Source: Sedimentisphaerales bacterium
GTDB lineage: Bacteria; Planctomycetota; Phycisphaerae; Sedimentisphaerales; SM23-30
DNA: 64,000 nt
Assembly (NCBI GenBank): GCA_963666285.1
Contig: OY762711.1
Strand: one strand, 5' to 3'
Positions 6,826 through 26,640 of the stretch are shown here, in pieces; position 1 is the first letter of the stretch, and every line of letters starts with the position of its first letter. The notes under the pieces were generated by a model. It saw only the letters and a program-made list of their open reading frames with translations, had not been told where the DNA came from and did no database searches. Both the position numbers and the translations under genes were made by a program.

Positions 6826-7720
6826 TTACACTCCGATAAAAAAACTATCTCTTTTATCCTTGTTATAGCCTGAACTTTATCTGGTTTACACTCGGGAAAT
6901 GCCTTCTTATCCATCTATCCTAAACCCATTTCTAATATTTCGTACTTTCTTTCAACCAGGCCAAGTCTATGACCAGCCCGGATAACACAATAGGTACATA
7001 TACCCATGGTAGTTGGAAATGCCCGTTCGAGCATGGTATAAATGATTACATTATCATTACTCACCTTCCGAGCGACCGGACAAAACCATACACTATGTGC
7101 ATATATCACAATTTTCTCCGCAAACCACCTGCCACACAATCAATACAAACTTAGCCCCTGCCTGTCTTTTACCATCGAATAAATTGACCTCCAATATTAT
7201 ATTATACATTTTTCATGTCAATATTTTCAAAAACAGTTCATAGAACTCTGTTGCCATATACTGGGTGCATAATAGTAATAACTAACAGAACTGGTATTTT
7301 CACAACTCGTTACTGTATACAATAACAAAATAACACCTGAGATATAATCCTTTAAAATATACATATTTGCGGCTATAGCACTAATTATAAAGTATTTCGA
7401 CTATTATAATTTGCGCAAATATGATGTAGGACAAAATCTTTCATACGGCAATTGATTTAAGTATTCTCTATAAATATTTAATAATAAAAGTACAATCTGA
7501 TCGATCAATTATAGGACACAAAATGGAAGATCTCGAACAATATCACTTCATACTTCCGAAACATTGTTTACATAATTCCCGACATTTAGGTACAAACATT
7601 TATAGACATATCGAAATACATCAGCAGAAGCATTTTACAAATAAGAAAAGAAGAATTATAAATACTTCTCAATATAGATAATCCATCAACTTAATACTGA
7701 AAATAATTATTTTTCAAATT

Positions 7721-9805: not shown

Positions 9806-9911
9806 AGTTATAATATACCTCTCTTTACCACAAGGTAACAAACCGTAATCTGTGGATAAGTATTTCTATATCTTCGTGTAGCTGCTTAGGCATGAACATG
9901 GCAAAGTCTGA

Positions 9912-10691
9912 TTAAACAAATACCAGCGGTCTGCCCGTTTCTGGATGTTTGCTTATTATTATATCTTCGTTATACGCCTGCGATATATGTTCAGCCGTTA
10001 TAACTTCTCCCGGTACGCCCGACGCTATCTTCTCGCCCTTATGCATCAATACCAGCTCATCACAATATTTAGCCGCCAGGTTCAGGTCATGCGTAACTAC
10101 CATCACTGCCTTGCCCGCTTGCGACTGCCTTGCCAGCAACGCAAAAAACGATCCCTGATGATGCAGATCCAATCCCGTCGTCGGCTCATCCAGCAAAAGG
10201 ATATTCGGCTCCTGTGCCAGTACCGAACCCAACAGTACCCGCTGCTGCTCACCACCGCTCAACTGGGCAATATCCCGACCGCGAAATTCCAATACCTCCG
10301 CCTCGGCCATTGCCTGCTCAATTACCTCTCTGTCATGGGCACTGCTAAAGCCAAAGCCTTTCAAATGGCAGTACCTGCCCATCGCCACAACCTGCTCAAC
10401 TGAATATCCGGACACAATATTTACATGCTGCGGCATATAGCCCAGCTCCACCGCTACCTCACGACGTGGCATCGTGCTCAGGTTTCGACCTCTTATTTCG
10501 ATCCGTCCGCTGCTAACATTCAATATACCGGCAGCCGCCTTTAGTAGTGTGCTCTTACCGGCTCCGTTAGGCCCTATCACGCCCACCATACGACCGCCAT
10601 GCAGCTCCATCGACACGCCGCGAACTTGCTCAATCTCGCCGTCATAACTGAAACTTAAATTATCAATTGTCAAAAGAGATTCATTTTTCAT
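9912..10691 (-). CDS. Iron-siderophore/cobalamin ABC transporter ATPase (FhuC/BtuD-like)
   Basis: GPNGAGKST, LSGGEQQRV, LLLDEPT, HDLNLA. Confidence 0.9.
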   Translation of the reverse strand: MKNESLLTIDNLSFSYDGEIEQVRGVSMELHGGRMVGVIGPNGAGKSTLLKAAAGILNVSSGRIEIRGRNLSTMPRREVAVELGYMPQHVNIVSGYSVEQVVAMGRYCHLKGFGFSSAHDREVIEQAMAEAEVLEFRGRDIAQLSGGEQQRVLLGSVLAQEPNILLLDEPTTGLDLHHQGSFFALLARQSQAGKAVMVVTHDLNLAAKYCDELVLMHKGEKIASGVPGEVITAEHISQAYNEDIIISKHPETGRPLVFV

Positions 10692-11625
10692 TGATACAGT
10701 TATACAACTCCTCCGCAATCTCTACCATCCTCACACCCGGTCTGTGCAGCAGATTTGCATCTATCAGATACACCATTCCATTTGCAACCGCAGGTACCTC
10801 CAGCGCTTGCCATTGCTTCAGTATCTCATCGCTGCTTTCCGCCAGCAGTTTTGGATCAACCGCCTCTATTATCACATCTGGTGCCCGGCTTATCAGCGAT
10901 TCACGCGAAATATCGGCATAAGGCAAAACGATATCAGAAAATATATTCTCGCCGCCGGCCAGGTGAATCATCTCGGTAAAACAGGTATCATTACCCGCTG
11001 TCGATAAGTTATTCAAAGTACCAGGCTTACGACCCAGACACAGAAATACCTTACGCCTTTTAACAACATCACCGCTCCTGTCCACCAGCCTTTTGCGAAT
11101 ATCCGTCAGACCGTCAAATATATTATTACACAGTTCAACACCCCGCTGCTCGCAGCCCAGTATCTTCGCCGTCAGCAATATCTCCTCATACACACATGCC
11201 AGATTTGACAACTTAAGATGCAGCTGCCGGATATTATTCTCCTCGCAATAATCTGATATTTTCTGGCTCTTACCCAAGGTAATTATCAGATCAGGCGTCA
11301 GCGATGCTATCGCCTCGAAATTCGTGTCAAAAAAACTGCCTACCTTTACCACGGTTTCAACTTCAGGTGGATAATCGCTAAACAGATCTGCTCCCACAAG
11401 CCTGTCCCCGCACCCCAGGGCATATACCAGCTCGGTACCTAAAGGCGTGACCGTAATTATACGCTGCGGAGATGACAAATCACTCACACTACCATAAGTG
11501 TTTTCTAATTCTGTACTTACGGAAATACTATCAGGAGTAGTACTGCTGCCGACCTGCATTATCAATACACCGATAACCGCAAGAACCAATGCCACAATAA
11601 AAGTTTTATCCATTTTCTGGATCAA
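10681..11625 (-). CDS. Helical-backbone metal-chelate binding protein (BtuF-like)
   Basis: 'PQRIITVTPLGTELVYALG..LVG..FSDYPPE..VG..NFEAIASLTPDLI', 'VPAVANG', 'HRPGVR'. Confidence 0.85.
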   Translation of the reverse strand: MIQKMDKTFIVALVLAVIGVLIMQVGSSTTPDSISVSTELENTYGSVSDLSSPQRIITVTPLGTELVYALGCGDRLVGADLFSDYPPEVETVVKVGSFFDTNFEAIASLTPDLIITLGKSQKISDYCEENNIRQLHLKLSNLACVYEEILLTAKILGCEQRGVELCNNIFDGLTDIRKRLVDRSGDVVKRRKVFLCLGRKPGTLNNLSTAGNDTCFTEMIHLAGGENIFSDIVLPYADISRESLISRAPDVIIEAVDPKLLAESSDEILKQWQALEVPAVANGMVYLIDANLLHRPGVRMVEIAEELYNCINEK

Positions 11626-11775
11626 TACACATAACCTTCTAATAATAACATACTTAGCCAGGACAATAAGCAGCCACTTCTACCTGTATTTTACATGCTA
11701 TTATTAGACACGATTATACGTTTTTTTTCAACTGTCAGTTAATTTGCACTGTCATCACACTCTCTTTTGTATATA

Positions 11776-13635
11776 TCATTCAAAAATCTCATCTAAAAAC
11801 GATGTAGTAAACATTACTGTTTTCATATACCACGGATGGAACAGCCAGAAAGAATGCGGAGCATCATCGAGTGTATGAATCTCGCTATAAATCGAATGCT
11901 GATTAAGCTTTTCCACAACCTCATCCCTGCCGGCATGAAATCGCGGCTGAGAACTATTAATAAACAGTATCGGCGGAGATTTTTCATCTACATAATATAG
12001 TGGAGAAGCTTCTTTCCATATCTCAAATATTTCATGATGTCTGCCGCCCAGCCACTTACTCGCCGGTGTTTCCTTCCTCGATGGGTCATCTTCATTTTTG
12101 AGTACTTCCTCACCGGTAAAATCCATAACTCCATCAATATTGATTATAGCGACAATCCGCTTTTTTTCATTTCCACTGCCGTTATCAGTCCCATACGTCA
12201 AACCAACCAGACCCGCAAGCTGGGCTCCGGCTGAACAACCCAGGATAGCCATCCTGTCTGGATCTATTTTATATTCAGCACTATGGTCAACAACCCAGGT
12301 TATCGCATTTTTTATATCTTCTACTGCTGCCGGATATTTCGCCTCCGGTGACAACCGGTATTCTACCGCCACCGCCGCATAGCCATGCTGAGCCAGGTAA
12401 TCTGCCATAGGATACATAAGGCTGCGGTCGCCCGAGCTCCAGCCGCCGCCGTGTATAAGAAAGACCACCGGTTTCGGAGCTTTCACTTTGTCATTAACAA
12501 AAAACAAATCCAATACCAAAACCCGACCGCCAAGATTGGAATATCCTACATCTTTGCACATAATACTGGCCGGATCATATAATGCCGGTTGTATAAATGG
12601 ATAATATTTCCGATATTTTTTCAGCGCACTTTCAAGGGTATAAGATGTATCACGCGGAATGTCAGGCATTATCTGCTTCGGCCGCTCAAACATCATTTCG
12701 GGTAACATAAACGGCTTCAACACTTCCCCGGCACTATACTTTCCAACTTCTTGTTCCGATAATAACCTAAACCATCCAACCCTTTTACCGGTTTTGGCAC
12801 CCGCACCACAATTGCCGCCTTCGACATACGCAACCGTCTGTTCCTTACCCTTATCATTCCAGTTATGCCAGCCTTCCGGACGAATATGGCCGCCCAGCTC
12901 GCATTTCACAAATGCCGTCTTGGCATACTGCCGCCATGGTCGTCCCAGGTAAACCTTATCGACACCATCATCTGCGGTTAATTTGCAATTCAAAAACACC
13001 AGACCATACGGACGGCCCTGCGGGGTACTTGCCGCAGTAATGTAGGAATTCTGCTTGCTGTGTATAACACAATTTTCAAAAAGTGCCGTTGCCTGACCAA
13101 AAATATAATCAGTTGTTCCCTCGATATAACAATTAATATAATGCTGACGGGTATTTGCTCCGTCAACATACAAGGTGTCCTGGTTACCGATAAACCTGCA
13201 ATTTTCAAAAACACAGCGGTCCGACTCGACCGCAAGAGCCACTGCCTGACCTACTCTGCCGGCATTATTTTCAACTACAACGTTCTTCATCCTGAAATTA
13301 TCTGACTGAACCAGCATCGTTGCTGTATGAAATGTACTGTTTCGACCGCGGTCAATTTTATCAAAATAATCATCCCACCGTATAACAACTTCTCCGGCTG
13401 ACCGTCCTATAATAGTCAGGTTATTATTCCAGCTATGCACTTTTACCTTTTCTTGATAAGTCCCGTTCTCTAGATAAATCGTAACTGATTTATCTGGAAA
13501 GGCTTTTGTACCGTCTATCGCAGCCTGTATCGAAGAAAAATCAGCTGTGCCGTCCAATGCAACATGAATTTCTGTCTGATACTGCCCACACACTATTGAA
13601 CATAACACAAAGAGAAGAATATTAATTAGTTTCAT
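11776..13635 (-). CDS. Pectin methylesterase (CE8) fused to alpha/beta-hydrolase esterase
   Basis: CE8 motifs QAVAL, GNQDTL, GTTDYIFG, YLGRPW; C-terminal HGGGW, YRLSPE, GCSAG, HSFW. Confidence 0.88.
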   Translation of the reverse strand: MKLINILLFVLCSIVCGQYQTEIHVALDGTADFSSIQAAIDGTKAFPDKSVTIYLENGTYQEKVKVHSWNNNLTIIGRSAGEVVIRWDDYFDKIDRGRNSTFHTATMLVQSDNFRMKNVVVENNAGRVGQAVALAVESDRCVFENCRFIGNQDTLYVDGANTRQHYINCYIEGTTDYIFGQATALFENCVIHSKQNSYITAASTPQGRPYGLVFLNCKLTADDGVDKVYLGRPWRQYAKTAFVKCELGGHIRPEGWHNWNDKGKEQTVAYVEGGNCGAGAKTGKRVGWFRLLSEQEVGKYSAGEVLKPFMLPEMMFERPKQIMPDIPRDTSYTLESALKKYRKYYPFIQPALYDPASIMCKDVGYSNLGGRVLVLDLFFVNDKVKAPKPVVFLIHGGGWSSGDRSLMYPMADYLAQHGYAAVAVEYRLSPEAKYPAAVEDIKNAITWVVDHSAEYKIDPDRMAILGCSAGAQLAGLVGLTYGTDNGSGNEKKRIVAIINIDGVMDFTGEEVLKNEDDPSRKETPASKWLGGRHHEIFEIWKEASPLYYVDEKSPPILFINSSQPRFHAGRDEVVEKLNQHSIYSEIHTLDDAPHSFWLFHPWYMKTVMFTTSFLDEIFE

Positions 13636-13993
13636 ATATAAACTCCTTCTAAACAGTCTTAATATAAGAGCCGGATATCTAAATTATATAGGGTATCAAA
13701 AGTGGATACAACCGCATAATCGTTACAACCGTTGCATGCGGTGCAATCTCAGCCATCAAACCAATCCGTTTATATTATTACCACAACTATTTTTTTAAAC
13801 AAAATGTATCATTATTAACTCATTATGGCTCAATTCAGTGTCGATTGAATATATTGTTACAAAAGCAGATCTTCTGTTTATATAGTAAATGTTTTTCATT
13901 TACTTATTGGAGTTACTTAAATAAAGCTCTAAGCAAAGGTCAAGGAGAAAACATTGCGAACAAATTATTCAGTTTCGCGGAGGTTAAAATAAC

Positions 13994-14752
13994 ATGCGTA
14001 AAAGAAAATTCGTTGTAGGTAGAGAGACACAAAACTTGTTACACACTGCATTGATGAAAAAGATGCCTCTTACCATAACAAAAAAACATGGCGACGATTG
14101 GGAAATGTATAAATCCCATATTATTTCGATACAGGGTCATAGAATGGTTATCACTCTGCCTTTCGGCCGTGAAGATCAGCCTCCGATGGAACCGGGAAAA
14201 GGGCAGGAGCTGGCAATCACTTTCAAAAAAGGGTATAACAAATGCCTGTTCACCAGCCGAATCATTTCTCAGAGCAGAACCGAAATCGATCCGGGCCAGT
14301 ATATCGACACCCTCATAATATACGTGCCGGAACAAATCGAAAAGATCCAACGCCGTGTTTACGAACGTACAAATGTTCCTGAAGGCGAAACTATCACTGT
14401 TACCTTCTGGGCCATTCATGACAGCAGCGAAAAATATTCCGGATCACTCAACGACCTGTCAGGCGGAGGTATTGGTGTCGATGTGAATGAAAATGTCGAC
14501 CCGGCAATCGAACCGGAACAGCATTGCAATGTTCAGTTTGTCCCACTGCCGGGCCACGAACCTATCATAGCAACCGCTATTTACAGACATATAACCAACC
14601 CGGAAAATGGCAAACGCACGATCGGTTTCCAGTTTATCGGCCTGGAAAACACCGAACAGGGTCGCATGGTCCTTAGGAGAATTGGACGGGTAATTACAAT
14701 CTACGATAGAAGAAATAATATCGCAAAGAATAGATTCATCTATCAACATTAA
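13994..14752 (+). CDS. YcgR-like flagellar brake / PilZ-domain c-di-GMP receptor
   Basis: QRRVYER (RxxxR) and DLSGGG (DxSxxG) PilZ motifs after an N-terminal YcgR-like domain; GGAGG RBS. Confidence 0.85.
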   Translation: MRKRKFVVGRETQNLLHTALMKKMPLTITKKHGDDWEMYKSHIISIQGHRMVITLPFGREDQPPMEPGKGQELAITFKKGYNKCLFTSRIISQSRTEIDPGQYIDTLIIYVPEQIEKIQRRVYERTNVPEGETITVTFWAIHDSSEKYSGSLNDLSGGGIGVDVNENVDPAIEPEQHCNVQFVPLPGHEPIIATAIYRHITNPENGKRTIGFQFIGLENTEQGRMVLRRIGRVITIYDRRNNIAKNRFIYQH

Positions 14753-14786
14753 AAAATATGCAATAAAAACCTATCTCAACATAGCG

Positions 14787-14817
14787 AAAAACAGGCCCGG
14801 AGTTTGGGCCTGTTTTT
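14787..14817. terminator. Bidirectional intrinsic terminator
   Basis: AAAAACAGGCCC-ggagttt-GGGCCTGTTTTT between convergent genes. Confidence 0.8.
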
Positions 14818-14880
14818 ATTTTAAATCTGCTTTTCCGCAGGTGACACATACTAATCAACTGGACTATCAACGGATAATGG

Positions 14881-17211
14881 TTAATTTACATCATAAGACG
14901 GCGGTACATAACCTTTCGCCCAGTCCGTATCCGGCTCGGTTGACATTATAAATTCCAGCTTGTTCTTTTTCTTACTGGCAAGTTCTTCCAGCGTAAGCCA
15001 GGTCTTACCTGCCTCGCTGCCGTTAAGCTTCATCGAGGTTATATATGGTGCTTCATGACCGGCATTATCAGCTGTTATTACCACCTGACTGCCGTCACCA
15101 AGATTAAGCGTAACTTTAGGAAACAGCGGACCGGTCACAGAAAAACCACCAACGCCCGGTATCTCAGGATACAATCCCAGCGATGCAAATATATACCATG
15201 CCGACATCGCGCCGCTGTCATCATCACCCGGTATCCCCTTAACCTTATTAAAGAATGATGCATCCATAACACGACGCATCTGGTTCTGAGCCTTCCACGG
15301 TGCTCCCATCCAGTTATAAACCGGTACGATACCAAAGCACGGCTCATTACCGGCCAGGTATTTCGGATTACCATAATCATAGCCAAACGCTATCTCCGAC
15401 ATCAGCTTATCCAGACGCTCCTGGGCTGCTTCATTTCCGCCAATTTCATTTACCAGTTTGCCCAGGTTATGCGGGATACCCCAGGTATAATGGGTCGAGG
15501 TGCCTTCCTGGCAGCCATCGTTACTAAACGGGTTAAAATCTTCTTTCCAACTGCCGTCTCTCATCCTGCCCCAGATATATTTCTTTTCCGGGTGCAATAT
15601 ATTAAATATACTCTGTGAACGAATCAGAAAATATTCATAGCTCTCCTCATCACCAATAGTCTTTGCCATCTGCGCAATTGAAAAATCAGCTGATGCATAT
15701 TCGACATTCTGTGATACCGGGCAATGAATATTAACATCATAAGGATAATAGCCATATCGCTTGTATTCCGGCAGACAGCCCCAGGTATAATGAAGGTTAC
15801 GACCCCAGTATCGATTATTCGTACCGGAATCGATCATAACTTTTGTCAGACCGTCAACGTCAAAATCCTTCGCGCCAAACGCGTAAGCACTGGCAATAAA
15901 CGGCGCCGCCGGATAACCTGCCATTATCAAAGTCTCATCATTAAACATACTCCATAACGGCAGACCGCCTCCGCCATTATATTCTGTCTGCTGCGAGGTC
16001 TCCAGCATCGTCTGGCAGAAATCGCTCGCAGCCTCCGGGTAGAACAAGCCCCAGAGCTGAGCCTGGGTACGATAGGTATCCCACCCGGAAAATGTACTGT
16101 AAGCATGATGTCCCGGTCGAACGGTATGAACTTTGTCATCCATACCGATATACTCGCCATTTACATCATCAAAGATATTCGGTAATACAACTGAATGATA
16201 CAGTGCCGTATAGAAAATAGTCTTATCATCCTCGCTGCCGCCTTCGATCTGAATTTTATTCAACACATCATTCCAACCGTCTCTGGCTGCATTCTTGACC
16301 GTGTCAAAACACCAGCCCGGCATCTCTGTCGCCAGGTTGAGCCTGGCATTTTCTTCACTGACATATGATATGCCGGTTTTCATCAAAACATCGCTGGCGG
16401 CAAAACTTACATAGGCCGCTATATCATTGCCTTCGGCTGTGTATGCTCCGGCCATATTCTCAGAGCCCTTCCAAATGCCATAGCCTTTGAATTCATTGTT
16501 AAATACAGTATTGAAATAGATCACATAGTCACATTTCTTCTGATGACAGAAACCGCCGCCCCTGACCCAGCCGGAAACTGTCCGTGTTTCAGGATCAATT
16601 GTTATTTTACCATCTCTCATACCGTTTGCCGATGCGGTCGGATCAAAAATAACATGCGCCGAATCTGTATCCCCATACTCAAACTTCGCCATGCCGCAGC
16701 GAGTCGTTGCTGTCAGCTCGGTTTTTACATTATACCGGTCGAGCATCACGGAATAATAGCCCGGAGAGGCACTTTCCTTTTCCTTACTGAACTTCGAACT
16801 GTAAACATTCTTATCTGACGCCGGTGAAGCTTCCAGCGAACCGGTAACAGGCATAAACGGCAGCTCACACACCGCCTCACAGCCCACACCGCTTATATGC
16901 ACCAGGCCGAAACCGCGAATCTGGTCACAGGTGCGGTCATATCCGCTGCCGTGATTGCGAACAGTTGAATGCGGACTGAATGACAGCATACCAAACGGCA
17001 TCTGGGCTCCGGGGTAAGTAGAACCGGAACCTCTGGCTGTACCGATAAATGGATTTACATATTCTGACCAGTCTGGAACAGACGTCTTTTTACCAGATGC
17101 TGATTTCGATGAATCTATTGTACAGCCGGCAATAAAAATTACTACAGATAGAAACACTGCAATAATACAAACGCGCAAGGCCTTCTCGGCCCGAATACTT
17201 AATTCTTGCAT
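14881..17211 (-). CDS. GH92 alpha-mannosidase, probable lipoprotein
   Basis: 'VNPFIGT', 'PGAQMPFGM', 'FSGWDTYR', 'GNEP', 'PGDDDSGAMSAWY'; lipobox-like IAGC. Confidence 0.92.
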   Translation of the reverse strand: MQELSIRAEKALRVCIIAVFLSVVIFIAGCTIDSSKSASGKKTSVPDWSEYVNPFIGTARGSGSTYPGAQMPFGMLSFSPHSTVRNHGSGYDRTCDQIRGFGLVHISGVGCEAVCELPFMPVTGSLEASPASDKNVYSSKFSKEKESASPGYYSVMLDRYNVKTELTATTRCGMAKFEYGDTDSAHVIFDPTASANGMRDGKITIDPETRTVSGWVRGGGFCHQKKCDYVIYFNTVFNNEFKGYGIWKGSENMAGAYTAEGNDIAAYVSFAASDVLMKTGISYVSEENARLNLATEMPGWCFDTVKNAARDGWNDVLNKIQIEGGSEDDKTIFYTALYHSVVLPNIFDDVNGEYIGMDDKVHTVRPGHHAYSTFSGWDTYRTQAQLWGLFYPEAASDFCQTMLETSQQTEYNGGGGLPLWSMFNDETLIMAGYPAAPFIASAYAFGAKDFDVDGLTKVMIDSGTNNRYWGRNLHYTWGCLPEYKRYGYYPYDVNIHCPVSQNVEYASADFSIAQMAKTIGDEESYEYFLIRSQSIFNILHPEKKYIWGRMRDGSWKEDFNPFSNDGCQEGTSTHYTWGIPHNLGKLVNEIGGNEAAQERLDKLMSEIAFGYDYGNPKYLAGNEPCFGIVPVYNWMGAPWKAQNQMRRVMDASFFNKVKGIPGDDDSGAMSAWYIFASLGLYPEIPGVGGFSVTGPLFPKVTLNLGDGSQVVITADNAGHEAPYITSMKLNGSEAGKTWLTLEELASKKKNKLEFIMSTEPDTDWAKGYVPPSYDVN

Positions 17212-17946: not shown

Positions 17947-19431
17947 ATGTTTGCAAAGAAAAATAAAATAAGCTTTAAAGTTCTGATGCTTCCGGTTATA
18001 GCGTTAATTTGTATGGGAGGATTATACTCTAGCGAGCAATATGTCAACTCTGCGGTTTCAAACGATGTAATAATGCCTGAATTTAACAAATCAGTTTTAA
18101 ACAGCAAAAAGGAAGCCTTAAAATCAGCTATTGATGTTGAAGCCACCCTCTTGGCTAAAGCTCTTGCAGGCATAAATGACACTGACAAAAAAATAGAAAT
18201 TATCGGACAATACATTCAGGATGTCAGATTTATGGGTGAAGATAAAACTTATATCTTTATTAACTCAACTGACGGGGCCAGCGTCTATCACCCGATAAAC
18301 CCATCGATTATGGGCGCGGATATGTCTCAAGCTAAAGACCCCGATGGAATCTATTTTACCCAGGAATTCATCAAGGCAATCAAAGAAAAAGGTGAAGGTT
18401 TTGTTAATTACTCCTGGGCTAAAGGAGACCTCGGACCTCAACCGAAAATAAGCTATGTAAAAGCTATCCCCGGAACAAATTTATATGCCGGAGCTGGTGT
18501 ATATATTGATGATATTGAAAAGGAAAAAGCAGCATTAACAGCTTCTATCCAGGATAAAAAAAGCCAATATACGGTTTATAAAGGAATTGGAATAACATTA
18601 TCATTAATTGTATTAATATTATCATCCGGCCTGATTGCAAAAAGCATTATTCTTCCTTTGAATAAAGCAATTAGCTCCTTAACAAAAGCAATGGCGGAGA
18701 TTACAGAAGCATCGGAAAACATCTCTTGCAGTGCCAATAACCTGGCTAATAACGCCAACAATCAGGCCGCGTCGATAGAAGAAACAAGTAGCTCACTCGA
18801 AGAAATAAATTCGACAATAAAAGCAACCTCAGAAAACTCAGGAAAAGTTAGCGTACTGGCTGAATCTTCAAGACAAGTCTCACAAAAAGGACAGGAATCC
18901 ATATCTCAAATGACATCGGCAATGGAAGGTATAAAAAAGTCATCGCAGGAAATCGGTAATGTTATCAAGATAATTGATGAAATTGCTTTCCAGACAAACC
19001 TGCTCGCCTTAAACGCTGCGGTTGAAGCTGCTCGAGCAGGCGAAGCAGGAAAAGGATTTGCTGTTGTGGCAGAAGAAGTTCGCAATCTTGCGATGCGTTC
19101 GGCAGAAGCTGCAAAGGGAACTTCCAGGATGATCGAAGAAGCTGTAAAAAGCTCCCAAAATGGTGGAAAAATCGTAACCGAAGTATCAGAAGCATTTCAT
19201 GAATTTTCTGACTCAACCGATCAAGTTAACCAATTGATATCAGAAATACATAATGCGTCAAAAGAACAATCGAATGGCATCGAACTGATCAGCCAGGCTA
19301 TGGTGCAAATCGATCATTCCACCCAGGCTATCACGGCTAATGCCGAGGAAGATGCCACTGCTGCCATGCAGCTAAAGGAACAGGTGCAATATGTACATAA
19401 TGTTGCTGATGAATTGAAAGAGATGATTTAG
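17947..19431 (+). CDS. Methyl-accepting chemotaxis protein with Cache sensor domain
   Basis: Cache-like '[22 protein letters not shown]' between TMs; MCP hairpin [34 protein letters not shown]. Confidence 0.95.
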
Positions 19432-19581
19432 CAGGATATTGTTTTTCACAAGTTAAGAAAACTTATAAAATGTAAGCATTCACAGGTGCGATATTTGCAT
19501 CAGATTCCGTGTTTGTGAAGCTTTAAAATTGGTCGCGATAGCGATACCTTAACTTATTTCTTTTTACTTATATCTTATTAC

Positions 19582-19603
19582 TGTAACCGTGTGAACGGTT
19601 ACA
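19582..19603. terminator. Hairpin between convergent genes (possible terminator)
   Basis: TGTAACCGT-gtga-ACGGTTACA. Confidence 0.45.
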
Positions 19604-19609
19604 TAAAAT

Positions 19610-20491
19610 TTATTTCGTGTCAAACAGTGAATTATTTTCCGGACCGAACCAGCCCAGCTTATTGGCAATTGTACCCTGCTCGTCAGTTTTACCATGTGTG
19701 GTATATTCTGTTGAAAAACTCATTGCTTCTGCTGTAACATGACCGTCCGCCCACGCAGTATTTGTAAACCTGCCATGACGAAAATGAATTGTAGGATCAG
19801 GCATACCATCTACTTCCATAGCTTTGTCACGACTATAACCACTGCTGCCAAACGCATCTACATACCACGGCCAGAACGGTGGATGAACAAAAGAGTACTC
19901 AATCAACCCCTGCTTACCATTTCCAAGATCCTGGTTAAACGCTGTATCTGCAAACATAACCGTTGAATGAGGCTTCTTGACCTTTGTCTCATTCGCACTA
20001 TAATTACCACCCTTAGCAATACCATACTCATCGACCCGGCCGCCAATATATTCGCTGTTATAGCCATAACCGCCGCAACCGGCCTCAAAATTACCATCAA
20101 CCTGTCCCGCCTCGGCATAATAATGCCGCTCCTTAAAGGATGGGCATCTCTTTAGCTCTCCTTCGCCAATATATTTTGCCAGCGGCCCCCTTGCGGCATC
20201 AAATGCCTCATTTACACTATCACGAACTCCATGCCAGCGATGGTGATTATAATTAATATCTTTTGCCGCCAAAACATAATACCCTCTGTTATCCATCGCA
20301 TAGTTTGTGTTTGCCAGGAAAAGCTGCCGTTCATTTGACGCACATACTACCCGGCGGCCCTGTCCGCGGGCATTCGCTAATGCCGGTAAAAGGATACTAA
20401 CCAGCAGTGCGATAATTGATATCACTACCAGTAACTCTATCAGGGTAAAACCTGATGCCTGTTTTCTACTATTGTAAATCAAATTTGGCAT
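19610..20491 (-). CDS. Prepilin-type N-terminal cleavage/methylation protein with H-X9-DG motif (DUF1559-like)
   Basis: [29 protein letters not shown]...CASN.RQL; C-terminal [14 protein letters not shown]. Confidence 0.92.
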
Positions 20492-20530
20492 ATATTTGTA
20501 ATATCGGCTCTATAGTTAGATAATGCTTAA

Positions 20531-20691
20531 GGTGACTTTTGGAAATTGCTTTTGATGCGATAGTTTAAGATTTTGGTTGCTGACAAGAAACATAAAATCG
20601 TGCATATTGGTCTATATTCACTGTTTTATGTGACGCATGCCGGCAGGCAAAAGTAAAACTTGTCGCTCAAAATGAATTTTCAGAGTGTGCC
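20531..20691. mobile_element. MITE-like element, family 2 (161 bp, GG..CC ends, TTAA on both flanks)
   Basis: Imperfect ~30-bp TIRs GGTGACTTTTGGAAATTGCTTTTGATGCGA / TCGCTCAAAATGAATTTTCAGAGTGTGCC; relative at 29685-29759. Confidence 0.65.
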
Positions 20692-21939
20692 TTAATCTCG
20701 TTTAACCGAGTTTAACCAGTTCGTCGCCAGCAGGTATAAATCATTGATATCGATAAACCTGTTCTCATCAAAGTCACCCTGCGGCCAGTTTCCATACATA
20801 TTCCACCGGTTCGCCAGGCGGATAAAATCTGCCATATTCACCTTTCCATCTGAATTAGCATCACCGTAAAGCTGTTCAATCGCCCCGATAGCCTCAAGGT
20901 CAAAACCGCCAGAACCCCAGGTTACCCACGCATCATATACACTATGATTGGTTTGAAAATATTCTCCCCCTTCACCTGTTTCTGGGTCTATACTATTGGG
21001 ATCAATAAGTTCAATGGCCGAATCCTCATAAAAACCACTGCCGGGGATATCCACTATTTTAATGTAGTTAATATTCTGCAGATCAACATCGCCATTTATC
21101 ACCGCCTCGCTGTTTGCCAGATCTTTCAGGTTAAACGGCGTACCCCATGTACGTTCATAAGCATTTACATGTTTGCCTGCCAGATTATACACATTCGATG
21201 GGTCTATTGTACCATATGCTCCTACCTTTGCACTGGTAAGCGAAACCGACGGAAACCGGGCAAACATTTCTCCGTCTGTCGATACCTCAACATAAGCCAG
21301 CTCGGCAAATATCTGGCCGCCAATACCTGCTCCGCCTGCCGAGATAAAACCATTCTCAAATACAGCGAAGTCCGGGCCAGGTCCATCGCAAAGTGGATCA
21401 TCAAAGGAAACAGTAACCTGGCCCGGTTGGATTTTATACGGATCATTAGGATCCAGTATATCATTATCCGCATAATTAGGATCTGAAGGATCAAGCACAT
21501 TAAGCTGGCTTTCATGCAGATCGCCCAATACACATACATCAAAATTATCACCGGTCACGGGGCCTAACGAAGCTTCTGGCCTGCGCCAGTCCTTAGGAAC
21601 GCCGCCATAATACGTATAGCTTTCCCGCCCTATCAACGCAGCACTTGCTGCCGGGGCAGGAATATAGTTTTGATACCCGGTTGCCCATTGCCTGAAAACT
21701 GGGTTAACACGTAAACTGTTTGGATCATCATTTCCACCCGGCTCTTCATCATTAGATCCTGCCGGGCAAATCCCCCTTGTACTGCCGCTGATGTATCCCG
21801 GTATTCCGGCATCAGCCGCCGTTGGATGGCGATTCTCCATCGCGGTTGAATAATGCCCGTAATATTCGCCTTCCTGTCCGTTAAAAGCAAATATTACCGA
21901 TGCAAATATTAAACTTACAAAAAATACTTTAATTGCCAT
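20692..21939 (-). CDS. Secreted surface protein with C-terminal dockerin-like pair; putative cobalamin-associated family
   Basis: Signal peptide from ATG 21939; 'DGPGPDFAVFENGF..FAELAYVEVSTDG..NLAGKH..GTPFNL..IVDIPG..SGGFDLEAIG'; tail GDANSDGKVNMADF..W / GDFDENRFIDINDL..NWL. Confidence 0.7.
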   Translation of the reverse strand: MAIKVFFVSLIFASVIFAFNGQEGEYYGHYSTAMENRHPTAADAGIPGYISGSTRGICPAGSNDEEPGGNDDPNSLRVNPVFRQWATGYQNYIPAPAASAALIGRESYTYYGGVPKDWRRPEASLGPVTGDNFDVCVLGDLHESQLNVLDPSDPNYADNDILDPNDPYKIQPGQVTVSFDDPLCDGPGPDFAVFENGFISAGGAGIGGQIFAELAYVEVSTDGEMFARFPSVSLTSAKVGAYGTIDPSNVYNLAGKHVNAYERTWGTPFNLKDLANSEAVINGDVDLQNINYIKIVDIPGSGFYEDSAIELIDPNSIDPETGEGGEYFQTNHSVYDAWVTWGSGGFDLEAIGAIEQLYGDANSDGKVNMADFIRLANRWNMYGNWPQGDFDENRFIDINDLYLLATNWLNSVKRD

Positions 21940-22000
21940 TTCTATCCTTACATAATATCCGAGACAGGACACATAATTATGCCCTGTCTCATTATATCTA

Positions 22001-22157
22001 AATTATTCAAAGTGACAGATTTTACACTTTTTATTGCTGTAAAACAATTTAATGCAAATTGTTATATTAATGATTTAATTAGCTTGCCGCTTTGCGGCAA
22101 ACCTTCCCTAATACCAAATAACTAATACCTCTCAAACTGACCATCGGTCAGTTTGAG
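22001..22157 (+). repeat. Composite REP-like element (AT-rich arm, GC hairpin, heptamer tract, palindrome)
   Basis: Near-identical sequence recurs, interrupted, from 62245 to window end; contains TTGCCGC-ttt-GCGGCAA and CTCAAACTGACC-atc-GGTCAGTTTGAG. Confidence 0.8.
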
Positions 22158-22161
22158 TAAA

Positions 22162-23250
22162 TTACTGCTTTCTCCGGCGTCGAGCTATTAACATTCCGCC
22201 CAAACCTAAAATCGTCATAGTAGCCGGTTCAGGAACCATGGTAATCTCAGAAATGCCCGCATTAAAACCAAAAGTTCCATACAGAGAATCTCCTTCAAGA
22301 AAATTACCGTCAATATCCAAACCGCCATACCAGCCAAACCCCTGGGTGGAATCCAGGGTTGCGATCACCTCGTAATTAATGCCGCTGCCGATTGCCATGC
22401 TTTCATTCCACATTATTACTTCGGAAGTGCCATTCATAAAATCGTTATATGTCACAAAAACATTTCCGCCATCGTCAACTGTGATACCGTTAGCCCCGTC
22501 ACTAAGGTCTGACAGCAAAATAGCATCGTCCAGCGTTAATATTTCATCAACTTCACCGGCTTCGATATCGTCAAAGACAGAACTTACCAGCCCGGCATCC
22601 CACTTATATAAAGCAGAGCTGCCAAAATTATAAGTCGCATAATAAATATTACCTGACTTATCAACTGTCATCGAAGCTGAATTACCTAGTGTCTGGATAA
22701 GGGTATCATGCTGGCAAACACCACCGCTATTGGTTACCGAACTATCAGAAATATATCTGAAAATATAATTCTCCTGGCCGTAGCCGCCGTTCCATGGCTC
22801 GTTCAGCCCGGAAAAATACAAATCGCTACCGATTGTATCGGCCCCGTAAGCGTTAACCGCACTTGTCGAGCCGGTTTTCCATTCCCCGCTATTATGATCG
22901 TATTCATAAATATGGGCGTCACTTGAACCACTTATCGTTGCGGCATAAAACGTATTTGTCTCAGGGTTATAAACACCAAAGGCGTCGCCCCCTCCATTCG
23001 ATTCAACTCCGCTATCTGGCTTGCCGATCAGGGTGGTATCTCCTGTGGCTGCGTTGGTGGTATAGTAACCGTCACCAGTGTTCCAGTAATGGAGCACTCC
23101 ATCATAAACAGTAAAATCTGTTACCGTTGCTATTGTTGTTATATCTCGCGCTGAATACTTGCTTGTATCAACATCAACATAATCTGATAAATCTGCAGCA
23201 TTAACATAAGCAGAAATGCTCAGCAGCATTATTATTAGTTTTTTATTCAT
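22162..23250 (-). CDS. PEP-CTERM sorting-domain protein, probable beta-propeller
   Basis: Signal peptide; blade-like 'MTVDKSGNIYYA', 'ITVDDGGNVFVT'; VPEPATMTILGLGGMLIARRRRKQ. Confidence 0.85.
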   Translation of the reverse strand: MNKKLIIMLLSISAYVNAADLSDYVDVDTSKYSARDITTIATVTDFTVYDGVLHYWNTGDGYYTTNAATGDTTLIGKPDSGVESNGGGDAFGVYNPETNTFYAATISGSSDAHIYEYDHNSGEWKTGSTSAVNAYGADTIGSDLYFSGLNEPWNGGYGQENYIFRYISDSSVTNSGGVCQHDTLIQTLGNSASMTVDKSGNIYYATYNFGSSALYKWDAGLVSSVFDDIEAGEVDEILTLDDAILLSDLSDGANGITVDDGGNVFVTYNDFMNGTSEVIMWNESMAIGSGINYEVIATLDSTQGFGWYGGLDIDGNFLEGDSLYGTFGFNAGISEITMVPEPATMTILGLGGMLIARRRRKQ

Positions 23251-23268
23251 TTTTTATTTTCCCTTTCC

Positions 23269-24015
23269 TTAATATGCTTTCTTTCTACGTGACACCATCA
23301 AACCACCTAAACCTAATATCGCCAGCGTGGCTGGTTCCGGCACCACCCCGTTCAAGGCCTCTACGTAATTAATCTCGGTGCTGAAATAGCCAAATATTCC
23401 GGCTGAATCATCTGTCGCGGTCCTGATACGAACATAGGCAATATCGGTTAAGCTGACATAATTGCCATCTGCATCAATTGCCTCGCTCAAATCGATTAAA
23501 TCTCCGCCTACGGTTACATCTGCATAACCCGTAACGCTATTTGACCAGTTGGAATTATAGGGATAACCAACAGATAAAGCACTGTCTCTTGGGTCGCCAA
23601 CTAAATCATAATTGCTGGTCTTGATCAGATAAAATGTCTCGTCCATCCAGCCGTCAGCTGTTGCGCCATCGCCATCAGTTTCGCAGGCTACCTCTACATA
23701 GCCCGGTTCATACCAGCTTGACATTGGGTTACCTACTATATTAAGATCTGCTCCGTCACCGTTTAGAATTGAGGTACTGAAACCAAGACAGATTCCGACC
23801 GCTCGGTCATTTGTACCCTGATCCGGGTTATCTGACCATCTGCCAAGTGAAACGATATCTGATGTGTTCAGAGCGTTTTCCGGGGTAGCATAATAGCCGC
23901 CATGGGTTTGTACTCCCTGCTCATAATAGCATAGTACATCACATATGGTCCCAGCATGAGACATCATTGGCAGACAAATTATTGTAAGCATTATATTTAT
24001 TACTCTTTTTAACAT
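23269..24015 (-). CDS. PEP-CTERM protein with putative BtuH-like cobalamin-binding domain
   Basis: Signal peptide; SLG..GF..ILNGDGADL.IVGN..W.EPG.V.V..GYAD..IDLSEAIDADG..I.YV.I.T..G.FG..STE; VPEPATLAILGLGGLMVSRRKK; first gene after B12 riboswitch. Confidence 0.75.
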   Translation of the reverse strand: MLKRVINIMLTIICLPMMSHAGTICDVLCYYEQGVQTHGGYYATPENALNTSDIVSLGRWSDNPDQGTNDRAVGICLGFSTSILNGDGADLNIVGNPMSSWYEPGYVEVACETDGDGATADGWMDETFYLIKTSNYDLVGDPRDSALSVGYPYNSNWSNSVTGYADVTVGGDLIDLSEAIDADGNYVSLTDIAYVRIRTATDDSAGIFGYFSTEINYVEALNGVVPEPATLAILGLGGLMVSRRKKAY

Positions 24016-24345
24016 ATTTTATTTCTCCGTAATTCTGTTGTTTTTGTTTCTTATAAATTCCAACTTTGAGCCTTCAATATAAATTATCTACATTGGTTTC
24101 ACCTCCATTCTTACTGGTGATGAGGCTCTGATTACGGAGAAATTTGCCTTTACAAGCCGTTTCTGCAATTGCTTTCAGGCATATTGCATTTAACCGAAAT
24201 TTGCTTATAATATTTGTTGCTAGGAAGCCGGTTTCCGGTTTCGCGGGGCGTTGGCATCTCCTTGTCAGCGCCCCTTTCCATTAAAACTCTTACCTCAAAT
24301 CTCTCTTACCAAAAGATACACCCGGGCACGAGCCATACGCGTAAT

Positions 24346-24383
24346 AAAAAAAGCCGCTGTTCCGGCGAAAGGAACAACGGCTT
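24346..24383 (-). terminator. Intrinsic terminator in riboswitch expression platform
   Basis: Minus strand AAGCCGTTGTTCC-tttcgcc-GGAACAGCGGCTT-TTTTT, about 90 nt downstream of the aptamer. Confidence 0.8.
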
Positions 24384-24475
24384 AGTTGTTTGCTATGTCA
24401 GGGGTTACGGCATTGTCTATCTGGCAATCCGACTGATGCAGTTCTTTTCGCGAGAACAAAATACAAGTTCATCAT

Positions 24476-24650
24476 ACAGGTATTCTGACTCTCGCTCTAT
24501 CGGATATCACCTTCCCAACTAATTCTATTAATCAGTGGCATAAGATATCTGAATTTCTGGTATGACCAGATCGAACGATCACAGCGGCGCGACCGTCGTG
24601 GATTTTCACCACGTTCCCTGCCAGGCTCTAAACAGCCTGTCTTCTTTTCT
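24476..24650 (-). ncRNA. Cobalamin (B12) riboswitch
   Basis: Minus strand: AGGGAAcgtGGTGAAAATCCacgaCGGtcgCGCCGCTGTgA...GCCACTG...GGGAAGG...GAGTCAGAATACCTG, the canonical B12-element order. Confidence 0.92.
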
Positions 24651-24671
24651 AATTGTTAAAGAACATCATCA

Positions 24672-24700
24672 ATAATACTCTTAGCCTTTTTAGATGTCAA
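24672..24700 (-). promoter_or_regulatory. Sigma70-type promoter of the B12-riboswitch transcript
   Basis: TTGACA-N17-TATTAT on minus strand just upstream of the aptamer. Confidence 0.75.
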
Positions 24701-24831
24701 AGAAAAAGATCTGGAACTATTTTTTACTCAATTTTAGTAGCGAATTATATTTTGTTAAGTATTTAGGACTGTTACAGTTGCACTGGATTATTCGCTGGAT
24801 ATATATATGGACCCACCTTATAATCTCTATT

Positions 24832-26640
24832 ATGGAAACGGAAAATATAAATCTGAATACCGAAAATTCTCCGGCACCGCCCCCCCGGCAAAAGGGCATG
24901 CGGGCTGCTGTTATACTTTCATTACTGACAATCTTTATGCTCTGGCTCAGTCAGGAACCGGCAGGATGGAGCTTCCTTTCATGGTTCGCACTTGTCCCCT
25001 GGGTCGTCGCAACCGTTCGCTGCGAACGATATCTCAAAATGGCGGCCGTTAACTGGGCCTGCGGTTCACTTTACTTTGTCATCAGCCTGTACTGGCTCTG
25101 GGATATCACCGGACCCGGCATGATAGCACTGTCTATCTACCTCGGACTTTACTTCGTTATCTCAGGTTTTATTCTCAGACGCGTTTACGTCGCCCGCAGA
25201 CGGTGGTGGTTCTCTGTCTGCCTGCCGATCGTATGGGTCGGCCAGGAATACCTCCGCGGCACTGTCATGACAGGATTCCCATGGCTGTTCATTTCACACA
25301 CTCTCATCGACTACCGAATTGCACAGGTCGCTGAGATTACCGGCGCTTACGGCGTTACCTTCCTCGCGGCCATGGTCAACGGCCTGCTCTGTGATGGACT
25401 GCTCAGACCACTGTTCGATATCAACCCGCGCACCGGACAGAGACGCGCCGCCGGACTATTCCGCATGCTGCTGGTAGGCGTCATTATCTCAGGTGCCCAC
25501 CTGTACGGCACACTGCGACGCAACTACGTCGCCAACAACAGCACACCCGGACCAATCGTCACCGTCATACAGGACACCATCCCGCAATCAAATAAAGATT
25601 CCGCCGCAAACTTCGACAATATGTTCGACAGCCATATCAGGCTCAGCCAACAGGCCGCTGATGATAATGTCAAAGAAAACCTTATCATCTGGCCCGAGAC
25701 TATCGTACCGGCACATATCAACCAGGAGTTCCTTGACCTGAAACAAAGATATGATTTCCTTACCGAAAACTTTAAAGATCGTGTCGACGCAGCACATAAA
25801 TACAACGACCGGTTAATGAAACTGGCCAAAGATACCAACACCGGGTTACTGGTCGGCACTCCCGGTATGGTTTTGAGATTGTCAGACGATAAATCAGGAG
25901 TTGAAATCGACAGGACAAACTCGGCGGTCATGTATAAAAATAACGGCGACCGGTTCGGGCAGCGGTACGACAAGATCCATCGCGTTCCTTTCGGCGAATA
26001 TGTACCGTTCAAAGAATCCATACCATGGCTCAATAAACTACTGCTGAACCTTACTCCTTACGATTACGACTACAGTATCTTACCAGGCAGAAACCCTGTC
26101 AGGTTCGATGTTCAGCAGTCAACCGAAGAAACCGAAAACCGCCCCGCCCAGACAAACAATTACGGCTACGCCGTTGCTATCTGCTATGAAGATGTTATCC
26201 CACAGACCGCTATACTGCTGAGCAATTACGAAGGCATTGACTTCCTGGTAAATATCAGCAACGAAGGCTGGTACGTCACTCCGCACGAACTCGATTGCGG
26301 CGGCGGCATCATCGAGGTTACTCCATCCAGCGAATTAATGCAGCATTGGAATATCAGCCGATATCGTGCCATCGAAAACCGGATCGGTATCGTCCGATCG
26401 GTCAACTGCGGCATAAGCGGGTTCATCAAACCTGACGGCTACGCCCAGACCTCCGGCACCGGCACTCTCTCTGAACTGCCACAGGACCGACGCTGCCAGG
26501 TCGGATACCTGACCGATAACGTCTGGCTCTATAAAGGCGGCAAGACCATATATGCAAGAATCGGCGACTCTTTCGCTATCACCTGCACCATCCTTATGGG
26601 ATTAATATTTGTTGTAACCCTGAAAAAATCTCGTAATTAA
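24832..26640 (+). CDS. lnt: Apolipoprotein N-acyltransferase
   Basis: N-terminal TMs, GFPW, G.YG, WPET, YDKIHRVPFGEYVP, ICYED, RAIENR, N.GIS. Confidence 0.95.
   Translation: METENINLNTENSPAPPPRQKGMRAAVILSLLTIFMLWLSQEPAGWSFLSWFALVPWVVATVRCERYLKMAAVNWACGSLYFVISLYWLWDITGPGMIALSIYLGLYFVISGFILRRVYVARRRWWFSVCLPIVWVGQEYLRGTVMTGFPWLFISHTLIDYRIAQVAEITGAYGVTFLAAMVNGLLCDGLLRPLFDINPRTGQRRAAGLFRMLLVGVIISGAHLYGTLRRNYVANNSTPGPIVTVIQDTIPQSNKDSAANFDNMFDSHIRLSQQAADDNVKENLIIWPETIVPAHINQEFLDLKQRYDFLTENFKDRVDAAHKYNDRLMKLAKDTNTGLLVGTPGMVLRLSDDKSGVEIDRTNSAVMYKNNGDRFGQRYDKIHRVPFGEYVPFKESIPWLNKLLLNLTPYDYDYSILPGRNPVRFDVQQSTEETENRPAQTNNYGYAVAICYEDVIPQTAILLSNYEGIDFLVNISNEGWYVTPHELDCGGGIIEVTPSSELMQHWNISRYRAIENRIGIVRSVNCGISGFIKPDGYAQTSGTGTLSELPQDRRCQVGYLTDNVWLYKGGKTIYARIGDSFAITCTILMGLIFVVTLKKSRN

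Follow-up and report, generated by a model that had tools for sequence, protein, structure and literature searches.

A putative cobalamin-controlled corrinoid-scavenging unit that pairs BtuH-type binding domains with a pilin-like protein in a Sedimentisphaerales bacterium

The closest known system to the one described here is the relay encoded by the btu loci of Bacteroides thetaiotaomicron, in which BtuJ (a DUF4465 protein), BtuH and BtuG feed vitamin B12 to BtuB, from which it passes to BtuF and BtuCD (PMC8941943, PMC10404256 and PMC13616437). Surface capture of B12 by proteins of the BtuH, BtuJ and BtuG types has so far been described essentially for gut Bacteroidota, and always as feeding BtuB, a TonB-dependent transporter. 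Here we analyse a unit of four genes, g1 to g4, that lies behind a cobalamin riboswitch in a 64,000-nucleotide stretch of DNA (the window; contig OY762711.1 of assembly GCA_963666285.1) from a Sedimentisphaerales bacterium of the phylum Planctomycetota. Two of its products resemble BtuH, none resembles BtuB, and the last gene encodes a prepilin. Judged from sequence and gene neighbourhood, the unit is, on balance, probably a B12-repressed corrinoid-scavenging module equipped with a dedicated pseudopilin.

Several features of the Bacteroides system bear on this reading. The H domain, the C-terminal ∼270 residues of BtuH2 and BtuG1, is a B12-binding domain; BtuH2 has been crystallised with B12 bound and is required for fitness when B12 is limiting. 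btuB accompanies >80% of btuH homologues, and btuG is universally conserved (PMC8941943). Two structures serve as references below, 7BIZ (BtuH2–B12) and 8BLW (BtuB1–BtuG1; PMC10404256). In the DUF4465 family, members from B. thetaiotaomicron are high-affinity B12 binders, and proteins of Coraliomargarita and of the planctomycete Mucisphaera were picked for binding tests (PMC13398666); binding has been confirmed across seven diverse members (PMC13616437). The same September 2026 review assigns BtuH homologues predominantly to the Bacteroidota, together with three Firmicutes, and the terms ‘pilin’, ‘Planctomyc’ and ‘PEP-CTERM’ have 0 occurrences in the portion of its text that was available (PMC13616437).

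A preliminary description of the locus had listed a promoter, a B12 riboswitch, a terminator and four co-oriented genes, and all of these were recovered in place on the minus strand (Table 1). The promoter is the top site among 21 promoter-like sites in positions 19300–24800. The riboswitch stood up to comparison with Rfam: the aptamer is full length (model positions 1–189 of 189) and scores 64.5 bits, where the gathering score is 31.5. It is one of two Rfam matches in the window and was also recovered, at 24683–24458, by a riboswitch search of the whole genome. The terminator hairpin is present in both the minimum-free-energy and the centroid folds, and is predicted to be the expression platform of the riboswitch. 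Four co-oriented open reading frames (ORFs) follow, the first starting 330 nt after the terminator, with gaps of ∼190–200 nt each between g2 and g3 and between g3 and g4. Pfam and NCBIfam agree with the gene types first proposed (PEP-CTERM, PEP-CTERM, dockerin-tailed, and prepilin with an H-X9-DG motif), the dockerin of g3 falling slightly under its cut-off. As had also been stated, the unit holds neither btuB nor btuFCD: in Pfam and NCBIfam, g1–g4 match no Plug, TonB-barrel, BtuF, BtuC or BtuD family, and none matches PF14717 (DUF4465/BtuJ) above the Pfam cut-off.

Table 1. Positions in the window of the riboswitch-linked unit and of the btuF/btuD-like gene pair
Feature	Position	Strand	Evidence
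Sigma-70-type promoter, TTGACA-N17-TATTAT	24672..24700	minus	11/12 consensus positions
Cobalamin riboswitch aptamer, RF00174	24458..24683	minus	64.5 bits, E 1.2e-13
Intrinsic terminator, predicted expression platform	24351..24383	minus	Stem of 13 pairs, 7 of them G-C; 7-nt loop; TTTTTTT tail
g1, secreted protein of 248 amino acids; compact BtuH-type H domain and PEP-CTERM anchor	23269-24015	minus	PEP-CTERM and PDB sequence matches
g2, secreted protein of 362 amino acids; NHL/SBBP-type beta-propeller and PEP-CTERM anchor	22162-23250	minus	Pfam, ESM-Atlas
g3, secreted protein of 426 amino acids; H domain (~85-365) and type I dockerin-like module (~366-420)	20692-21972	minus	Profile and model
g4, prepilin-type protein (pseudopilin) of 293 amino acids with H-X9-DG motif	19610-20491	minus	N_methyl motif, fold model
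btuF-like periplasmic binding protein	10681..11625	minus	Pfam Peripla_BP_2 E 7.9e-25; only one in genome
btuD-like ABC ATPase adjoining btuF	9912..10718	minus	ABC_tran E 1e-31

Two further elements were detected ahead of g3 on the minus strand, a promoter-like site (CTGTCA-N16-TATAAT, 22018–21991, 10 of 12 consensus positions) and a 14-pair hairpin that lacks a T tail (21991–21960). Together they overlap the listed GTG start of g3, and the sequence of this region (21960–22018) makes an internal start or processing site possible; the true start of g3 is probably Met12, at 21939. At the other end of the unit, a divergent ORF for lnt (apolipoprotein N-acyltransferase; 24694–26640, plus strand) has its listed start inside the riboswitch promoter. 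The real lnt start probably lies further downstream, because its LNT_N domain is reached only at residue 82.

The binding proteins provide the strongest tie to B12. g1, whose PEP-CTERM match scores 24.6 bits (cut-off 20.7), gave weak but specific matches to PDB sequences, namely 8blw_B (the H domain of BtuG1; E 6.5e-4) and 7biz_A (BtuH2–B12; E 0.01), and it aligned with the g3-family profile over 62 columns (hhalign, probability 95.4%, E 1.7e-8). That profile, built from an alignment of 33 proteins (A1), matched 8blw_B over residues 388–641, again in the H domain of BtuG1 (E 8.4e-14), and the BtuH2 chain 7biz_A (E 2.2e-7). Its C-terminal 55 positions matched type I dockerins of known structure, with E values from 1.7e-10; taken by itself, g3 reaches 20.8 bits for Dockerin_1 (PF00404), where the cut-off is 22.9. 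An AlphaFold model of g3 (predicted local distance difference test score (pLDDT) 80.4; predicted template modelling score (pTM) 0.81) led to the same structures. Foldseek ranked 8blw_B first (E 7.6e-5, probability 1.00), the dockerin 2y3n_B second (TMt 0.78) and 7biz_A third (E 0.011). The TM-scores of the model against the H-domain chains are low (0.21–0.29) because both proteins are multidomain. By these comparisons, g1 and g3 are members of the BtuH B12-binding domain family, two H-domain proteins that carry different anchors.

This assignment changes one part of the preliminary description, which had expected the unit to give a substrate to an orphan planctomycete protein family. Since g1 and g3 are relatives of the B12-binding BtuH and BtuG1 of Bacteroides, the binders are not orphans; it is the prepilin that is an orphan and that gains a candidate substrate. 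As to the anchor of g3, the dockerin part of its profile matches very many proteins of the genome (223 domain matches for the whole profile, most of them at dockerin positions), yet a search of the genome with Pfam cohesin returned nothing. The module would seem to serve this organism as a general tag.

The second gene encodes a protein of another kind. g2 matches PEP-CTERM (26.1 bits, cut-off 20.7) and an SBBP propeller repeat (21.6 bits), its closest ESM-Atlas clusters are NHL/SBBP/PEP-CTERM proteins, and orthologues stand behind riboswitches in four relatives (L016, L034, L026 and L022). A role for g2 as BtuG was considered and gained no support: with these Atlas neighbours and 0 PDB sequence matches at E up to 10, no relation was detected.

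g4 carries the signature of a prepilin, scoring 30.9 bits against PF07963 (N_methyl; cut-off 21.2) and 26.2 bits against TIGR02532 (cut-off 16.3). Its H-X9-DG motif, H239-x9-D249-G250, lies near the C terminus and was read from the sequence, TIGR04294 being absent from the NCBIfam matches of g4; among 33 g4-family members H239 and D249 never vary, and conservation of G250 is at least 90%. The protein falls below the cut-off of DUF1559 (Pfam SBP_bac_10, PF07596; 9.8 bits against 23.3, E 1), a family that two other g4-family members reach weakly (L045, 28.5 bits; L057, 26.6 bits). In a structural model (pLDDT 84.9), an N-terminal helix of ∼50 residues (17–67) stands on a beta-sheet head. The best 20 rows of a VIA-align comparison with this model are all pilins or pseudopilins, headed by PilA4 (Z 5.5), EpsG (Z 4.5) and ComP (Z 4.2); the best Z is modest, and Foldseek found no match to the PDB at E up to 0.001. 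We conclude that g4 is a prepilin with a pilin fold.

Within the genome, 63 ORFs match a hidden Markov model (HMM) of the g4 family. g4 itself scores 350.8 bits, compared with 152.1 bits for the best of the 62 paralogues, and its C-terminal tail (G280 to N287) is missing from 61 of them. Judged by these scores, g4 is a distinct orthologue and the sole member in this genome of the riboswitch-linked subfamily.

Whether the unit is conserved was assessed in 40 relatives from the same family and order. RF00174 matched in 37 of them, at 48 sites, all of which were taken with ∼7 kb of downstream sequence; four are cut to <900 nt by contig ends, leaving 44 informative loci. HMMs were grown from g3 and g4 with PEP-CTERM tails trimmed. 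DUF4465 calls are restricted to first-round matches and Pfam, since the iterated profile drifted into the H family via one fusion protein (L044). A g4-family prepilin is present in 35 of the 44 loci, from 33 of the 37 relatives with a riboswitch, and an H-domain gene of the g3 family in 38 loci from 34 genomes, so that the survey of relatives suggested at the outset upheld the gene set. The usual order is a PEP-CTERM protein, an H-domain protein and the prepilin, with the g3- and g4-type genes adjacent in nearly all loci. As their PEP-CTERM protein, 14 cassette loci have a DUF4465 protein and three a g2-like propeller; in the others it is a small unnamed protein. In eight of the 35 cassette loci the prepilin is followed by btuF, btuD or btuC, with all three genes in L027, L030, L031 and L035 and some of them in L033, L036, L023 and L041. 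The pairing of an H-domain gene with a g4-type prepilin is thus kept behind B12 riboswitches throughout the order, often together with btuF, btuD and btuC.

Nine informative loci are without a prepilin. Two of them (L022, L034) meet a contig end after the H gene, one (L014) holds nrdDG-metE, two (L015, L018) hold lone DUF4465 genes and one (L038) a lone PEP-CTERM gene, and in L051 nothing recognisable stands behind the riboswitch. L042 (G020:C3) is a string of five surface-protein genes, encoding an H-domain PEP-CTERM protein, a PEP-CTERM protein, an H domain with FG-GAP repeats, a PEP-CTERM protein and a PQQ-type propeller PEP-CTERM protein, and shows no prepilin within 7 kb of the riboswitch. 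The ninth, L028 (G009:C48), is a second riboswitch of its genome and precedes a salvage operon, cobC-cobU-cobT-cobS-cobD-cbiB, that ends in a TonB-dependent receptor gene.

Some loci depart from the usual arrangement in other ways. In L044 (708–2300; G025) a gene fusion has placed a DUF4465 domain (E 3.9e-50) and an H domain in one protein of 530 amino acids, which ties the two binder families together. A DDE_5 transposase gene lies between the H-domain and prepilin genes in L058 (2453–3829; G038), and in L126 (G041, same class) two g4-family prepilin genes, for 255 and 275 amino acids, stand in tandem downstream of a 553-amino-acid ORF whose product fits the H-domain profile and bears a PEP-CTERM motif (residues 258–280). 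In other families of the order, ComF-like genes and murJ follow the cassette in place of btuF, btuD and btuC: a ComF-like gene (double zinc ribbon and/or phosphoribosyltransferase) occurs in L044, L045, L047, L052, L053, L055, L056, L058 and L059, joined by murJ in L044, L052, L058 and L059. ComF is a DNA-uptake protein elsewhere, a curious neighbour for a pilin-like gene; its position here may be mere synteny.

The picture differs across the phylum, where 138 of 151 sampled genomes have a cobalamin riboswitch and one site from each of 100 genomes was analysed. A g4-family prepilin was found within 5 kb in 13 of these 100 loci and an H domain in seven. Among the 98 first ORFs of at least 150 amino acids, 20 encode TonB-dependent receptors, 11 propellers, seven prepilin/DUF1559 proteins, five BtuF, three FecCD and three CbiM. 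DUF4465 gave no HMM match in the 100 loci and none by Pfam (first ORFs of 98 loci and 58 further ORFs). With 35 of 44 loci in the order and 13 of 100 in the phylum, the cassette is therefore general in the order and sporadic elsewhere, where BtuB-type loci are commoner. One locus of another class (L091) has, behind the riboswitch, a DUF1559 prepilin, a 139-amino-acid ORF that has no Pfam match, BtuF, BtuC, BtuD and CobQ. In L091 and L093, no H-domain or DUF4465 gene occurs in the 5 kb behind the riboswitch. Other recurring contents of such operons outside the class include DUF6580 proteins (L080, L093 and L155), a Diphthami_syn_2-like gene (L093 and L099), the prepilin (L080, L093 and L099) and BtuF (L093).

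A search of genome contigs with g3 alone returned one locus, from the betaproteobacterium Aquabacterium soli (L062, NZ_RSED01000006.1). It consists of a cobalamin riboswitch (87.6 bits) followed by genes for two PEP-CTERM proteins, the first with an H domain and the second of the DUF4465 family, and then for a TonB-dependent receptor. The H domain of g3 is 34% identical to its counterpart there.

The genome that holds the window (6.35 Mb, 97% complete) consists of a 6.15-Mb contig and three small contigs (C2, C3 and C4, of 65.6, 65.6 and 66.6 kb), and contains three cobalamin riboswitches. Besides the one that precedes g1–g4, a second lies upstream of nrdD-nrdG-dcd-metE, which encode B12-independent isozymes. 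The third (94.2 bits) precedes a lone PEP-CTERM gene with a DUF4465 domain (C1:5844027-5844896, E 1.4e-48), the single DUF4465 gene of the genome. The DUF4465 gene lies inside the cassette in most relatives, and therefore appears to have split off in this genus with a riboswitch of its own; the same lone arrangement occurs in two genus-mates (L015 and L018). Downstream of it (G000:C1:5844027-5845205 region; L002/L006) are an FMN-reductase-like gene and an HD-domain gene. As for the demand for B12, the genome has 13 B12-binding-domain matches; CbiC is absent from this 97% complete assembly, and blastp detected no homologues in it of a relative's CobU, CobT, CobS and CbiB. The organism therefore probably needs complete cobamides.

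Candidates for the inner-membrane step are at hand in the window and elsewhere. The BtuF-like protein has BtuF as its best NCBIfam match (93.4 bits, under the cut-off of 234) and is 35–37% identical to the products of btuF genes downstream of the cassette in relatives; for the adjoining BtuD-like ATPase, identity to the ATPases downstream of the cassette in relatives is 44–50%. The BtuF-like protein is likely the inner-membrane partner of g1–g4. The pair lies 8 kb from the operon and has no permease beside it; the only FecCD permease (BtuC) of the genome (G000:C1:5834306-5835253) is ∼680 kb away, at a distance of ∼10 kb from the riboswitch of the DUF4465 gene. The genes for import thus lie scattered in this genome, but contiguous with the cassette in relatives. 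Membership of btuF and btuD (9912–11625) in the g1–g4 transcription unit was ruled out, as pectinesterase, PilZ, GH92 and an opposite-strand chemoreceptor intervene. At the outer membrane, the search for btuB that had been suggested found seven TonB-dependent receptors in the genome, each scoring well under the BtuB equivalog cut-offs and none of them encoded behind any of the three riboswitches. Seven secretins and 13 ATPases of the type II secretion system (T2SS) E type were also counted.

These observations suggest how the unit might work. When B12 is scarce, the riboswitch would permit transcriptional read-through. g1 and g2 would be exported and held on the cell surface by their PEP-CTERM tails, and g3 by its dockerin-like tail; the H domains of g1 and g3 would bind corrinoids outside the cell, as would the DUF4465 PEP-CTERM protein under its separate riboswitch. 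g4 would be processed like a pilin, and a T2SS or type IV pilus machine would build from it a short pseudopilus in a secretin. This pseudopilus may carry the corrinoid, or a binder with its corrinoid, through the outer membrane and on to BtuF and BtuCD, doing the job of BtuB. Capture of corrinoids by the predicted binders is well supported. The pseudopilin step is a hypothesis drawn from gene position and from the exchange seen in Aquabacterium, and it is from these that we infer that the unit would act in place of BtuB, as the preliminary description had proposed. We accordingly offer it as a tentative proposal, with the odds somewhat against it, that vitamin import here is independent of TonB and that the H-X9-DG prepilin makes the crossing of the outer membrane, a short pseudopilus in a secretin handing corrinoid to BtuF from BtuH- and BtuJ-type binders that are tethered by dockerin and PEP-CTERM tails.

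Several points weigh against a scavenging module with its own pilin-based route. To our knowledge, no pilin carries a vitamin, and any of the seven TonB-dependent receptors of the genome could carry B12. One relative (G009) has both a prepilin cassette with btuFDC (L027) and the riboswitch-controlled operon with a TonB receptor described above (L028), and the two routes are therefore not exclusive. Across the phylum the prepilin cassette is a minority (13 of 100 loci) compared with a TonB receptor as first gene (20 of 98), and prepilin scores there (78–257 bits) overlap the level of the paralogues. Within the unit, the gaps of 190–330 nt, together with the promoter-like site and the hairpin ahead of g3, could free g3 and g4 from riboswitch control. 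g2 has no detectable relation to BtuG, and no Pfam cohesin was found in the genome as a partner for the dockerin of g3. Finally, the contacts of BtuH2 with B12 are Gln333, Asn399, His476, Tyr510, Trp511 and Trp577 (PMC8941943). In a HMMER alignment with a chain offset of 100, in which only the positions of Trp577 and Leu578 could be placed, these two residues correspond to Ile and Phe in g1, so that the B12-contacting Trp577 is replaced by Ile.

Of the alternatives, the one that survives best is that the unit serves capture only. g1, g2, g3 and the DUF4465 protein would concentrate corrinoids at the surface, g4 would form a short surface fibre with no task beyond keeping g3, by its dockerin tail, at a distance from the cell, and the vitamin would enter through an unlinked TonB receptor, much as BtuH and BtuJ feed BtuG–BtuB in Bacteroides. 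The seven TonB-dependent receptors and the coexistence of both routes in G009 speak for it. So does the lack of a Pfam cohesin, which means that the dockerin needs another partner; this could be g4, whose gene is adjacent to g3 in nearly all loci. Set against this, none of the seven receptors is riboswitch-controlled or reaches a BtuB cut-off, the prepilin of relatives stands directly before btuF, btuD and btuC in an operon that has no TonB receptor, and in Aquabacterium a TonB receptor takes the prepilin's place. We regard capture alone as unlikely, somewhat more so than the import route through a pseudopilus.

A less probable alternative is that g4 is a secretion helper, a pseudopilin that adapts a T2SS to the export of g1–g3 and makes no contact with the vitamin, being co-regulated only because its cargo is. 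Its prepilin motif and pilin/pseudopilin fold would suit this role, with EpsG, the major pseudopilin of a T2SS, as second-best structural match (Z 4.5), and the genome has secretins (7) and ATPases (13) to go with it. PEP-CTERM proteins, however, are sorted by exosortase after Sec export and not by a T2SS, and we know of no T2SS arrangement with a single pseudopilin per cargo set. The two loci of other classes in which a prepilin stands beside btuFCD and 5 kb contain neither H-domain nor DUF4465 gene (L091 and L093) offer no co-encoded cargo. We consider a helper role improbable. Least of all do we credit a function unrelated to B12 supply, with B12 only a signal and the operon encoding adhesins or polysaccharide-binding surface proteins: a neighbourhood rich in glycan-degrading genes (GH92, PL8, pectinesterase) and the generic nature of dockerin and PEP-CTERM as surface tags, with dockerin-like modules in very many proteins of the genome, would fit it, but the H domains are homologous to a protein whose binding of B12 is proven by crystallography, links to DUF4465 and btuFDC by fusion or adjacency recur, and the glycan genes belong to other transcription units that are not conserved beside the cassette in relatives.

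The genes of that neighbourhood (4819–17211) encode a PL8 polysaccharide lyase, a pectinesterase/esterase fusion, a GH92 protein, a PilZ protein, FapA and a Cache-domain chemoreceptor. Such genes point to a motile lifestyle with glycan degradation; neither PL8, pectinesterase and GH92 nor the other neighbours are conserved next to the cassette in relatives.

If the pilin-like protein does act in uptake, it would represent a previously undescribed route across the outer membrane for a small nutrient, and that part of the system would be new in kind. It would also supply a first substrate, and with it a testable job, for the large DUF1559-type prepilin family of Planctomycetota, whose many paralogues might then be substrate-specific uptake pilins. 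The open literature that mentions DUF1559, by its listing, assigns the family no function, and no description of a pilin-linked B12 cassette was found in a search of the openly available literature. The riboswitch offers a simple experimental handle, B12 being added or withheld. For annotation, the consequence concerns H-domain proteins and prepilins behind RF00174 that are now labelled hypothetical, PEP-CTERM or dockerin proteins.

How the unit relates to known systems can be set out part by part. g4 shares with type IV pilins and T2SS pseudopilins, including ComP and ComGC, a class III signal peptide (N_methyl) and a long N-terminal helix with a beta-sheet head. Unlike classical pilins, it is about twice their size, has a subfamily-specific C-terminal tail, is predicted to be under riboswitch control and is linked to vitamin transport genes. 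Pilus-driven uptake of a macromolecule through a secretin is established for DNA. With the planctomycete DUF1559/H-X9-DG prepilin-like family g4 has in common the motif and membership of a 63-member paralogous group, whereas it fails the PF07596 cut-off. Compared with BtuB–BtuF–BtuCD of Escherichia coli, there is likewise riboswitch control of the outer-membrane step, and homologues of BtuF, BtuC and BtuD are present in the genome, and downstream of the cassette in relatives; the difference is that the regulated g1–g4 unit has no TonB-dependent receptor.

The locus of Aquabacterium soli uses the same cobalamin riboswitch family, the same H and DUF4465 binder families and the same PEP-CTERM anchors, with a TonB-dependent receptor in place of the prepilin, and shows the form that the cassette takes when the classical outer-membrane route is used. 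The likeness to the Bacteroides btu loci extends to control by a cobalamin riboswitch, several binders per locus with surface exposure (predicted here), the H domain (in g1 and g3), DUF4465 (at another riboswitch of the genome), a propeller among the proteins encoded, ties to BtuF, BtuC and BtuD, and an organism probably unable to make cobamides. The differences lie in the anchors, lipoprotein in Bacteroides and here PEP-CTERM in g1 and g2 and a dockerin-like module in g3, in a unit that lacks BtuB and whose propeller g2 shows no detectable homology to BtuG, and in a dedicated prepilin that is the most conserved partner, none having been reported for any Bacteroides locus. The same binding domains thus recur in another phylum on different anchors. 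Throughout an order they go with a dedicated pilin-like protein and with BtuFCD, in a unit that contains no BtuB.

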